DNA of 55,805 bases. Source: Nitrospinaceae bacterium (GTDB lineage: Bacteria; Nitrospinota; Nitrospinia; Nitrospinales; VA-1). Below, one piece after another: positions 28,825 through 31,784 of this stretch. The stretch's first letter is position 1; every line of letters starts with the position of its first letter. The notes below the pieces were generated by a model, which did no database searches, had not been told where the DNA came from, and saw only the letters and a program-made list of their open reading frames with translations. Location: contig JAJDAV010000039.1 in assembly GCA_029261695.1 (NCBI GenBank), positions 1 through 55,805 on the forward strand, written 5' to 3'. Position numbers and translations under genes: made by a program.

Positions 28825-29424
28825 TTATTTACTTATATAAGGGATTTCAGTTGTTGTTTCTAGTCGAGACTCTTCTTCTGCGGGTGCTAATTGATTGATT
28901 ACTCCAAATAAGCATGGGTCGGTAAGTTTCAAGCTCTTTTTCTCCTCGGGATCCATATTGTTAAACCTTTCGGCATCCATCAAAAAAGCGGTGCCAAAAA
29001 AATAATTATCAAGAAACGCATCAAAGTCTATCGCGCTACCATTGAGTTCAGGAAATATCTCCAACCGCTGTTGAGGCTCTGAATAGCTATAATCCTCATA
29101 GGTTCCCTGTAAACTGTCGAATAGATAGGTTAGGTGGTAGGCATTTAGAGGATGCCACACGCTTTTGTTTATCAGGCCTTCGAATAAACTTCGGGAAAAA
29201 TTATTTAGCTGAGAAATGTTACTGAATTGAGAAGCATGAGGAAATAATGTTTTAAATCTTTCGAACCCTTCACTATCAGGTAATTGATTGAGGCCGAAAA
29301 ATATTTCTCGATCTGTCATTAAAGAGTGGAATATAAAATTATAAGCATCTAAGTCTTGGTTGACTAGGTTTTCTGGGTGCGGGGTTGCAGAAGGTTCGTA
29401 TATATTTTTTTTGAAAATCAACAT
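28825..29424 (-). CDS. Hypothetical protein (paralog B)
   Basis: Start at ATG 29424 (MLIFKKNIYEP) chosen by alignment with paralog A (MLVFKNNIYEP). Confidence 0.85.
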   Translation of the reverse strand: MLIFKKNIYEPSATPHPENLVNQDLDAYNFIFHSLMTDREIFFGLNQLPDSEGFERFKTLFPHASQFSNISQLNNFSRSLFEGLINKSVWHPLNAYHLTYLFDSLQGTYEDYSYSEPQQRLEIFPELNGSAIDFDAFLDNYFFGTAFLMDAERFNNMDPEEKKSLKLTDPCLFGVINQLAPAEEESRLETTTEIPYISK

Positions 29425-29501
29425 GTTAAAATTTCTCTTAGGTTTTGTTTCAGACCATTCAGTAAAATTAATTTTATCATACAAAGCTTAGATGGAGATT
29501 T

Positions 29502-30860
29502 GTGATATTGCAAAATGATCAGGAAATAGAAAATATTTTAAGTCGCATACTTCCTAGTCCACAGCGAGAGCAATTTGGGAGGATGTTGAGCCAATTGCAA
29601 AAAGGGGACGGGAAATCTTTGGATTGGGCATCCATCCACTCTCCGAATGATTCGATGCAGGTGGATTATCATTCGCTGGATGAAGCCTCGAATTGCACTG
29701 AAAATTTTTCCCGACTTGTCGTAGGGAAATTGAATGGCGGTCTAGGCACAAGTATGGGGTGTTTAGGCCCCAAATCTCTTATTCAAGTAAAAGAAGGTAA
29801 AACCTTTTTAGATTTGATTGTTGAGCAAGTCAGCATATTAAATAATAAGTGGGGGGGGGATATTCCTCTACTGTTGATGAATAGTTTCTATACCCATGAG
29901 GAAACCAGTGCGTTTGTTGATTCCTGCTCTCTTCCCATCATTACTTTCAAGCAAAACATATTCCCGCGATTAAATGCGAAAACTTTTAAGCCTGTAAGCC
30001 CAGATGAGTGGGGTGAAAATGCTTGGTACCCTCCTGGTCATGGAGATTTTTACAATTGTATTCAACAGCAGGGAATACTAAAGCAACTAATTGAAAGCGG
30101 TAAGGACATTCTATTCATTTCAAATGCCGATAACCTGGGCGCTGTTGCAGACCCTAAAATTCTTTCTTACATGATAGAGAAAGAAATTCCATTTTTAATT
30201 GAGGTCACTCCAAAAACTCCCTCAGATGTAAAAGGTGGAACGCTGTATGAACAGAATGGAAAACTGAAATTGCTTGAAATTGCTCAAGTGCCGAAGGAAC
30301 ATATTGAAGAGTTTTGCAGTCAGGAAAAATTCTCGGTTTTTAATACGAATAATATTTGGATGAATTTGGCTGTTATTGAGGAGCGATTAAAAAAAGGACC
30401 ATTGGATCTGAATGTGATCGTTAATCATAAAACTATAGACGGCCAACCTGTTGTGCAACTGGAGACCGCTATTGGTTCCGCAATTGATTGTATTGATAAT
30501 GCGGTAGGATTGTGTGTTTCCAGAGATAGATTTATGCCCGTAAAAAAAACTGAAGACCTTCTTTTGGTGCAATCAAATATCTTTAATTTGGAAGAGGGAC
30601 GACTGGTTAGAAATGTAAAAAGAAATAATCCACACTTGCCTGAAATAAAATTTGGACAGCCTCTTGATCAATTGGATGCGTTTAATAAATGCTTTACCAC
30701 GATTCCCGATTTATTGAATTTAGAATCGCTCGAAGCTTCCGGGCAAATTTGTTTTAAGGGGGCAACGTCTTTAAAGGGAGAGATAAAGTTAAATGGAAAA
30801 AATAAATCTATTCACATAGAAAATGGACGATTGTTAAATGATGAAAGTATTGAAGGTTGA
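29502..30860 (+). CDS. UTP--glucose-1-phosphate uridylyltransferase, eukaryote-type (UDPGP family)
   Basis: KLNGGLGTSMGC-GPKS; WYPPGHGD; SNADNLGA; DVKGGTL; FNTNNIW; QLETAIG; RFMPVK. Confidence 0.93.
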   Translation: MILQNDQEIENILSRILPSPQREQFGRMLSQLQKGDGKSLDWASIHSPNDSMQVDYHSLDEASNCTENFSRLVVGKLNGGLGTSMGCLGPKSLIQVKEGKTFLDLIVEQVSILNNKWGGDIPLLLMNSFYTHEETSAFVDSCSLPIITFKQNIFPRLNAKTFKPVSPDEWGENAWYPPGHGDFYNCIQQQGILKQLIESGKDILFISNADNLGAVADPKILSYMIEKEIPFLIEVTPKTPSDVKGGTLYEQNGKLKLLEIAQVPKEHIEEFCSQEKFSVFNTNNIWMNLAVIEERLKKGPLDLNVIVNHKTIDGQPVVQLETAIGSAIDCIDNAVGLCVSRDRFMPVKKTEDLLLVQSNIFNLEEGRLVRNVKRNNPHLPEIKFGQPLDQLDAFNKCFTTIPDLLNLESLEASGQICFKGATSLKGEIKLNGKNKSIHIENGRLLNDESIEG

Positions 30861-31049
30861 TTCCAAAACATCTAGAAATTTGCGGCTTCTTAATCGTCTG
30901 GTTTTAGGAGGGGGATTAAGCTCTTATTATTGTAGTCTCTGGTCCTAATAATTTATAGGGTATATTGACTTATATCGCAGATTTGTTGTCTTAATAATCA
31001 ATTTTTTCATTTAAAACCAATGCTTTATAGCGTAATACGCAAATAAACG

Positions 31050-31077
31050 TTGACATGTATTTATTCCTAAGTATACT
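31050..31077 (+). promoter_or_regulatory. Near-consensus sigma70 promoter
   Basis: TTGACA-N16-TATACT. Confidence 0.7.
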
Positions 31078-31090
31078 TTGCTAATGTGCA

Positions 31091-31260
31091 GCCTAGGACC
31101 TATATTAAGCATAGGATAATTCCTAGGCCCATTTGGTTTTGTTTTAGAGTAAAACCTTCAGTCGCTGGGAGGTAAAAGCAAATGGATCTTTGAAATGTTC
31201 ACTAAAAGGGAGAAGGTAAAGCTTTTGAATTTGCCTTATTTAGAATATTTGTAGGTGAAC
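31091..31260 (+). ncRNA. Candidate structured 5' leader RNA with three tandem domains
   Basis: Stems GCCTAGGA/TCCTAGGC, CCATTTG/CAAATGG and GTTCAC/GTGAAC, each with nested helices. Confidence 0.45.
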
Positions 31261-31291
31261 TTTTGTTAACTAGGGTAAGGGAGGATTTACA

Positions 31292-31723
31292 ATGAAAAAA
31301 CTCGCTATTGTTTTACTCGTTACCATCGCTTCATTTTGTCTCGCAGCTTCAGCATTTGCTGGTAGCGTAGCTCCGGGTGGAATGGCCAAATGTAACAACG
31401 CAGGTTCAATTACCATTGCAACTGCTAGTGGTGGCGATGCTGAAGATCGTGGCAATGCCAATGGCTACATCTGGAAGTCATCCAATTTCACGACTGTTCA
31501 ATTTACATTAGGGCCGAACGACCATCAGGGCTTTTCTGGTAATGGTGGAGGAGCAGCAGGTAATGATCAAGTGAAAATGCCGAGCAAGCACTCCATGGGT
31601 CACAATTCTATTACCTTTAAAGGTCAAAACAATTTCAGCCGCGGCGACTCCATTGGTGATATCAGTGGCGAAGTTCGCATTCACAACACTGGAACGGTTC
31701 CAGTAACTGTATCTTGTGGCTAA
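31292..31723 (+). CDS. Secreted Gly/Ser/Asn-rich hypothetical protein
   Basis: Sec signal ending AFA|G; SD AGGGAGGA; own promoter and terminator. Confidence 0.88.
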   Translation: MKKLAIVLLVTIASFCLAASAFAGSVAPGGMAKCNNAGSITIATASGGDAEDRGNANGYIWKSSNFTTVQFTLGPNDHQGFSGNGGGAAGNDQVKMPSKHSMGHNSITFKGQNNFSRGDSIGDISGEVRIHNTGTVPVTVSCG

Positions 31724-31740: not shown

Positions 31741-31774
31741 AAACCGCCCTGATTTTCATCAGGGCGGTTTTTTT
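31741..31774 (+). terminator. Rho-independent terminator (possibly bidirectional with uppP)
   Basis: AAACCGCCCTGAT-TTTC-ATCAGGGCGGTTT-TTTT. Confidence 0.92.
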
Positions 31775-31784
31775 ATGCCTGTTT

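Follow-up and report, generated by a model that had tools for sequence, protein, structure and literature searches.

Introduction

Passages of the review PMC3997798 describe 5′ leaders, such as those of ermC, atpE and cryIIIA, that stabilise the mRNAs carrying them, and state that a strong Shine-Dalgarno sequence (SD) without a start codon stabilises a whole mRNA. The same review cites papers on the 5′ leader of ompA (Arnold, Yu and Belasco 1998) and on STAB-SD (Agaisse and Lereclus 1996). Here we describe a leader that may work in a similar way: the conserved, partly structured 5′ untranslated leader (about 208 nucleotides (nt), positions 31084..31291, plus strand) of a gene for a small secreted protein in a Nitrospinaceae bacterium (Nitrospinota). 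The DNA analysed, referred to below as the window, is contig C39 (JAJDAV010000039.1, 55,805 nt) of the 3.07-Mb, 220-contig, 89% complete assembly GCA_029261695.1. Nitrospinaceae carry out most of the nitrite oxidation in the ocean, and to our knowledge almost nothing is known about their post-transcriptional control.

The 5′ untranslated region (UTR) of Escherichia coli ompA resembles this leader in several respects. Both are long leaders of mRNAs for presumably abundant envelope or secreted proteins, and in both, hairpins towards the 5′ end precede a strong ribosome-binding site, which in the Nitrospinaceae leader may likewise lie in a single-stranded segment. RNase E/G is likewise present in the Nitrospinaceae genome, with three PF10150 matches over the cut-off. 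The ompA stabiliser is 133 nt long, compared with about 208 nt here. Unlike ompA, the Nitrospinaceae leader has extra SD-like tracts, and its first hairpin does not stand at the very 5′ end of the putative transcript; the two have no sequence or Rfam relation, and stabilisation by the Nitrospinaceae leader is a proposal by analogy.

A second comparison is with the STAB-SD of Bacillus thuringiensis cryIIIA, an SD-like purine tract that is found far upstream of the start codon of a gene expressed at very high levels and that has no start codon to serve. By analogy, we liken to it an SD-like tract in the Nitrospinaceae leader whose position is conserved: of 18 lineages sampled across the order, from two families, 10 have a motif of this type between -77 and -90. 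In contrast to STAB-SD, our tract belongs to a Gram-negative-type lineage in whose representative RNase J was not found, and the number of SD-like motifs is not enriched.

Leaders that regulate translation offer further points of comparison. With the CsrA-controlled leader of flagellin mRNA in FliW-CsrA bacteria, the locus shares a genome that holds CsrA and a FliW-like gene as well as several GGA tracts, one of them in the SD. However, these GGA tracts are not in hairpin loops and the gene is not a flagellin gene. SD-sequestering riboswitches and RNA thermometers resemble our leader in their CU- or U-rich tracts, in the combination of conserved helices with unpaired nucleotides and in their location in cis; here, by contrast, the sequestering helix does not covary, no Rfam family matches, and the element is confined to one gene per genome and a narrow range of organisms.

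A conserved promoter and a single-copy leader

The promoter (31041..31077, plus strand) consists of an UP-like AAATAA (31041-46), a -35 hexamer TTGACA (31050-55) followed by TG, a 16-nt spacer and TAAG-TATACT, with the -10 hexamer at 31072-77. A first-pass annotation, made from the sequence alone, had called it near-consensus, and the promoter scan agrees, as the two hexamers match 11/12 consensus positions. Moreover, in 43 of the 46 leaders collected with a covariance model (see below), AAATAA-N3-TTGACATG-N10-(T)AAGTATACT stands in exact register directly 5′ of the model start, and one related leader carries TATAAT as its -10. DNA upstream of -45 is unconserved in these leaders. Judged from the position of the -10 hexamer, the transcription start site (TSS) should lie near 31084, which would give the leader its length of about 208 nt. 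This stretch holds no plus-strand open reading frame (ORF) of at least 40 amino acids (aa).

In a BLAST-type search, the 261-nt promoter and leader occurred as one copy in the genome that carries the window. Of the 16 further genomes in this genus, 11 had it at full length and 71-84% identity, and the five without it are 59-83% complete. The promoter and the 3′ part of the leader were found in 21 of 23 genomes of the sister genus, and a metagenome scan with a 19-nt central block added 15 contigs. A covariance model, built without the outer stem of the second domain, yielded 46 matches at E<=1e-3 in five genera. Exactly one match per genome was present in 47 of the 70 genomes of the family; by genus, the counts were 11/16 plus the genome of the window, 21/23, 4/6, 2/2, 2/3, 3/11, 1/1, 1/1 and 1/2, and three genera (with 1, 1 and 2 genomes) gave no match. 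Wherever the position was inspected, the match lay directly 5′ of an orthologue of the same gene.

Outside the family, the signal of the model was weak (E 0.008 to 0.17) or absent. Elsewhere in the order, in further genera and families, a TTGACA...TATA(C/A)T promoter and a leader of 133-269 nt with a different body precede the orthologue, and GGGUAAGGGAGG-like SD regions are found before it throughout the order.

The first-pass annotation had recognised no core motif of the cobalamin, TPP, SAM-I, glycine, FMN or c-di-GMP riboswitches in the leader. Our search of the whole window with the Rfam 15 covariance models gave no match at the gathering thresholds; with the limit relaxed to E<=10, the region 30850-31400 returned only snoR31 on the minus strand, at 23 bits compared with a gathering score of 44, which is a chance match. 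Among publications on Nitrospina and riboswitches, none dealt with the element by title or abstract, and the top-ranked ones on untranslated regions, leaders, structured RNAs or cis-regulation made no mention of the group. It is thus a previously undescribed, lineage-specific structured leader. Of the initial proposal of a new cis-regulatory RNA, the conserved and partly structured leader without an Rfam counterpart stands, while its reading as a riboswitch found little support, as discussed below.

Covarying hairpins and invariant blocks

The leader had been drawn at first as three nested domains, D1 to D3, and all arm sequences named for them are indeed found where they had been placed. D1 (31091..31128, plus strand, as are all elements below) has an outer stem GCCUAGGA (31091-98) / UCCUAGGC (31121-28) and an inner stem CCUAU (31099-103) / AUAGG (31111-15). 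D2 (31129..31185) is closed by CCAUUUG (31129-35) / CAAAUGG (31179-85) and contains a central hairpin (31154..31173), ACCUUCAG-UCG-CUGGGAGGU, with a bulged G. D3 (31197..31260) consists of the outer stem GUUCAC (31197-202) / GUGAAC (31255-60) and the inner stem AAGGUAAA (31213-20) / UUUGCCUU (31230-37). The minimum-energy fold given by RNAfold for 31084-31294 comprises D1, D2 and the outer stem of D3.

Comparison of relatives revealed that most of these stems are conserved and covary, in line with what the first-pass annotation had named as a check. In a MAFFT alignment of 38 distinct leaders, the full structure paired 73.9% of the alignment cells, compared with 36.7-51.3% when the partners were slid; in a structure-fitted alignment of 46 leaders, the values for the structure without the outer stem of D2 were 80.4% and 32.3-54.9%, respectively. 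In the latter, the covariation score reached 0.270 compared with at most 0.142 in the controls, 29 of 34 pairs had changes on both sides and none of 500 shuffles reached the observed values; these figures come from sequences that are related to one another and from an alignment that was fitted to the covariance model. An unbiased listing of helices was swamped by G-U-rich alternatives and was not used.

Four or five helices covary. The central hairpin is the best preserved (91.3% and 89.1% paired, with CG to AU exchanges), and it appears in the individual folds of nearly all same-genus and most sister-genus leaders. In D1, the inner stem is 84.7% paired (with CG, UA, UG and AU types) and the outer one 68.7%. 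The outer stem of D3 is 78.9% paired and the inner one 82.2%, with one inner pair read as GC 16 times and as AU 14 times, and its loop varies in length.

The outer stem of D2 is the part of the three-domain drawing that did not hold: together with UUUU/AAAA, it pairs in 53.8% of the cells of the MAFFT alignment, and individual folds show it only in the genome of the window and its nearest metagenomic relative. In other species, the central hairpin is enclosed by different stems or preceded by a separate small hairpin. The sister genus has its own covarying stem around the central hairpin, and D1 is replaced there by a simpler GUAGGA/UCCUAC hairpin. Leaders of some species also carry a tiny palindrome at the 5′ end, which is inconsistent across species.

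Sequence conservation is distributed unevenly. Across nine same-genus genomes, identity to the genome of the window averaged 0.79 in the last 70 nt of the leader and 0.64 in the rest of it; the DNA upstream of the -35 hexamer gave 0.52, and third codon positions gave 0.58. The 5′ two-thirds drift almost at the rate of synonymous sites, with the hairpins kept by compensatory change, and the 3′ third is nearly invariant in sequence. Invariant or near-invariant columns, seen in two alignments, one of them that of 38 leaders, form two blocks. The first, AUCUUUGAAAUGUUCACUAAAAGGGAG (31186..31212), contains UCUUUG, the 5′ arm GUUCAC of D3 and an SD-like GGGAG; the second is the translation-initiation region UGUAGGUGAACUUUUGUUAACUAGGGUAAGGGAGGAUUUACA-AUG (31250..31294), with the SD GGGAGG at 31279-84 and the start codon at 31292-94. 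The 5′ joining strand of D3 is invariant, whereas the 3′ strand varies within the genus (AUUUAGAAUAUU versus GAAUAAUUAUA).

Folding energies vary along the leader as well. D1 folded better than its shuffles (z -3.04, with 2/200 equally good), D2 of the window reached z -2.16 and D3 z -1.19. The 5′ half of the window's leader had z -2.99 (1/200 shuffles equally good) and the 3′ half z +0.27. Over the 46 leaders, the mean z was -1.55 for the 5′ half, with 16/46 below -2, and -0.42 for the 3′ half, with 1/46 below -2.

SD-like tracts and their possible partners

Three SD-like tracts occur in the leader: GGGAGG at 31167-72, GGGAG at 31208-12 and the true SD, 7 nt 5′ of the ATG. The first is part of the central hairpin, where it forms the 3′ arm and faces ACCUUC, a sequence resembling an anti-SD. 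The second, invariant in 38/38 leaders of the MAFFT alignment, is unpaired and stands directly 5′ of the inner hairpin of D3, about 84 nt before the ATG. It is only the position of the upstream motif that is conserved across the order, and not the number of such motifs. The 3′ end of the genome's own 16S rRNA was not found in the 220 contigs, and the canonical CCUCC was assumed.

CU-rich tracts that could pair with the SD are also present, namely UCCUAG (31121-26), ACCUUC (31154-59), UCUUUG (31187-92) and a local CUUUU. In same-genus alignments, RNAalifold prefers long-range pairing of AAUCCU or CCUUC with the SD. Such sequestering pairings are possible in 81.0-90.0% of the cells, and slid controls still pair in 63-80%, because the tracts are runs of purines and pyrimidines. 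They show no covariation, given that 384/500 and 431/500 shuffles reach the number of pairs changed on both sides. The sequence comparison thus neither supports these pairings nor speaks against them.

We also considered whether the second GGGAG serves an upstream ORF, but the aligned leaders share no start codon or frame after it, and a 19-codon ORF from AUG 31195 is broken by indels in relatives. A mini-ORF of three codons (31181-31192; NUG GUU/GAU CUU UGA, with UAG once) begins 8-9 nt after the first GGGAGG, and its start codon varies between AUG, GUG and UUG. Since it is found in 15/23 leaders of the same-genus type and 0/15 sister-genus leaders, we rejected it as a defining feature.

In six leaders from other genera of the family, the surroundings of this SD mimic are built differently. 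There, the upstream GGGAGGAGG sits in a loop closed by a 7-bp stem that, by eye, covaries between genera (AAGGUGU/ACACCUU, GAGGUGU/ACGCCUC and AAGAUGU/ACAUCUU).

Transcripts and termination

RNA libraries contain transcripts of relatives of this locus. Twenty-four public runs, 17 of them recorded as RNA, carry a small share of the words of the stretch searched (0.06-0.10), too small a share for any claim on habitat or strain. From four marine metatranscriptome runs, belonging to four studies, contigs were placed at 80% likeness; they cover the coding region, and three records run into the leader as far back as 31178-31187. At this likeness, no contig covered the DNA upstream of about 31178 or the terminator. 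The missing cover most likely reflects divergence of the relatives and is uninformative as to the TSS.

Downstream of the gene lies an intrinsic terminator (31741..31777, plus strand) with a 13-bp stem, 7 GC pairs and a T run. It stands between the gene and the convergent uppP; since the hairpin is preceded by A residues and followed by T residues, it could serve both of the genes that flank it. Within the leader, the scan flagged no intrinsic terminator-like site of the kind that attenuation would need. The invariant 3′ block also contains, on the minus strand, a promoter-like site (TTAACA 31269-64, 16 nt, TATTCT 31247-42; 9/12), from which an antisense RNA would be transcribed.

Proposed function of the leader

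Our leading reading, held tentatively, is that the leader is a stabilising, ribosome-recruiting and constitutive element of a strongly transcribed mRNA, like the ompA UTR or a STAB-SD. According to this proposal, 31084-31291 would lead a monocistronic mRNA, transcribed at a high rate, for a small secreted protein confined to Nitrospinota. The 5′ hairpins (D1 and the central one) would hinder the entry of RNase E/G and RNase Y, the gene for the latter also being present in the genome. The upstream GGGAG may hold a 30S subunit, either as a standby site or as a STAB-SD-like roadblock, and the held subunit would protect the long leader and feed the true SD. An AU-rich, weakly structured run leads into this very strong GGGAGG.

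We favour this reading because promoter, SD and terminator are all strong and the first two are conserved. It is further favoured because the fast-evolving 5′ hairpins are compensated and no stable structure occurs where ribosomes load, and because the upstream SD mimic is conserved in position and a long leader persists across the order despite turnover. The contigs of relatives in marine metatranscriptomes and the 5′ half, which folds better than its shuffles, also agree with it. The first-pass annotation had mentioned an ompA-like stabilising UTR as an alternative, and this option fits better than a riboswitch, although the energy of the whole leader lends it no help.

A number of results weigh against the proposal. 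The whole leader folds at -51 kcal/mol with z -0.89, and 35/200 shuffles are equally good; a second run gave z -0.69, and z was -0.41, -0.15 and -0.26 at 10, 25 and 37 °C. With values from -0.89 to -0.15, the whole leader is no better than its shuffles, an outcome that the first-pass annotation had named as counting against its proposal. The predicted probability that the SD is unpaired averages 0.36 over the 46 leaders and is 0.22-0.31 in the genome of the window. D1 starts at 31091, about 7 nt after the putative 5′ end, which by the standard of E. coli would leave a single-stranded tail there. Upstream SD-like motifs are not enriched (17 compared with a shuffle mean of 15.9; 133/300 shuffles as high). 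Roadblocks of the STAB-SD type act most clearly on RNase J, and a search of the 89% complete genome did not find this enzyme, the best TIGR00649 match reaching 22.1 bits compared with a cut-off of 400. The metatranscriptome contigs give neither a 5′ end nor an expression ranking. The strongest objection is that the 45-60 near-invariant nt before the ATG exceed the need of a generic stabiliser, which suggests a specific partner.

It is because of these invariant nucleotides that we keep in play, as a rather unlikely second reading, a switch that responds to temperature or to a factor acting in trans. Its GGGAG and CU-rich tracts would pair in mutually exclusive ways, with a decoy hairpin and free SD in one state, whereas in the other CCUUC, AAUCCU or the local CUUUU would mask the SD; a variant might involve an H-type pseudoknot, UCUUU:AGGGA, crossed with GUUCAC:GUGAAC. 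The choice between the states, and with it the level of translation, could depend on a CsrA-type protein, a small RNA, the 30S subunit or cold. The long-range SD pairings preferred by RNAalifold agree with this idea, as does the resemblance of the invariant single-stranded blocks to recognition sites, but the alternative pairings do not covary and their slid controls pair nearly as readily. Folding predictions have the SD partly paired, with an unpaired probability that rises from 0.22 at 10 °C to 0.31 at 37 °C, yet this effect of temperature is small. As to a protein partner, the genome encodes CsrA (PF02599, 83.7 bits, over the cut-off; C3:292-450). The last 4 nt of its gene are shared with the start of an ORF of 153 aa, FliW-like by eye (C3:292-989), which suggests a CsrA-FliW pair of the flagellin type. 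The usual geometry of a CsrA site is a GGA in a hairpin loop. Against it, none of the loops of the three conserved hairpins (AUUAAGC in inner D1, UCG in the central hairpin, GCUUUUGAA in inner D3) contains GGA, and the GGA motifs of the leader lie in stems or single strands. In a related scheme, which we find less likely still, the leader would be a riboregulator built of repeated SD mimics, with three GGGAG and three CU-rich tracts forming exclusive helices, perhaps the pseudoknot among them. Translation would then be toggled by a signal, be it temperature or the binding of a small ligand, of an RNA-binding protein or of a 30S subunit. If true, such a switch would act on a secreted protein that would be among the most highly transcribed in the nitrite oxidisers dominating the ocean, and the interest of the locus would rise accordingly.

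A metabolite- or ion-binding riboswitch, as originally suggested, is very improbable. In this case, D3 would be the aptamer, with GUUCAC/GUGAAC as P1, a covarying P2 and conserved joining strands, and sequestration of the SD would be the expression platform. Covarying helices do flank highly conserved unpaired nucleotides in D3, and with no known family matching, the riboswitch would be new. However, the element is single-copy, always precedes the same gene, is absent from the paralogues and is phylogenetically narrow, its structure being unrecognisable outside the family; it has no supported platform, since the SD-sequestering pairs do not covary and the leader contains nothing resembling a terminator. 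The variable 3′ joining strand, the modest z of D3, the missing thermodynamic signal in the 3′ half and the nature of the downstream gene, which encodes a secreted protein and neither a transporter nor an enzyme, point the same way. We assign the lowest probability to an action at the DNA level, that is, to an operator downstream of the promoter or an antisense promoter on the minus strand. The 9/12 minus-strand site inside the invariant block and the 3′ half devoid of thermodynamic signal would suit it, but promoter-like sites in the region are not enriched (4 found, 4.3 expected) and the antisense spacer would be about 14 nt in G014-type leaders. Furthermore, a distance of 100-210 nt between the start site and the blocks is far for an operator, and only selection on RNA explains the covariation of the adjacent helices.

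Whichever way it acts, the leader is a candidate for an Rfam-type family: it occurs once per genome, aligns cleanly between relatives and has hairpins that covary. Promoter, leader, SD and terminator may form a natural high-expression cassette for a group without genetic tools, and the leader offers a test case for the function of SD-like standby or roadblock sites outside Firmicutes.

The downstream gene and its neighbourhood

The gene (31292..31723, plus strand) encodes a 143-aa protein with a signal-peptide-like N-terminus (MKK, a hydrophobic run and AFA|G, read by eye). Cys34 and Cys142 occupy invariant alignment columns and, as the sequence indicates, likely form a disulfide. The first-pass annotation had taken the protein for an orphan; it belongs instead to a Nitrospinota-wide family, present in 37 of 41 related genomes from four families of the order, usually with 1-3 paralogues, and matched at E<=1e-3 by 1373 of 1457 candidate proteins, mostly from marine assemblies. 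The nearest database protein is 98% identical and comes from a metagenome-assembled genome that its source labels as Nitrospina sp., where it is called hypothetical, and the nearest clusters in the protein atlas contain Nitrospinota hypothetical proteins only.

A Pfam scan of the protein found no family, and the single NCBIfam match, which covers the signal-peptide region, stayed below the threshold (13.8 bits compared with a cut-off of 52.5). The AlphaFold model, based on an alignment of 25 sequences, is a beta-sandwich with a pLDDT of 70.0; a Foldseek search of the PDB with this model returned nothing at E<=0.001, the best hit having E 0.019. No expression data on the protein were found in the Nitrospina omics literature, a search that covered texts other than supplementary tables. 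The protein is lineage-specific, its transcripts turn up readily in marine metatranscriptomes, and it merits characterisation.

Two tandem paralogues of the protein (47-54% identity) lie elsewhere in the same genome (C163:4719-6027), 3′ of what appears by eye to be the C-terminal end of a LuxR/FixJ-type regulator. The upstream regions of both are unrelated to the leader. In the window, a 219-aa ORF on the minus strand (28825-29484) matched no Pfam or NCBIfam family at the thresholds used. The product of the gene upstream of the promoter (29502-30860) has 452 aa and is a UTP-glucose-1-phosphate uridylyltransferase of the PF01704 type (E 2.7e-147), the usual eukaryotic form of the enzyme.

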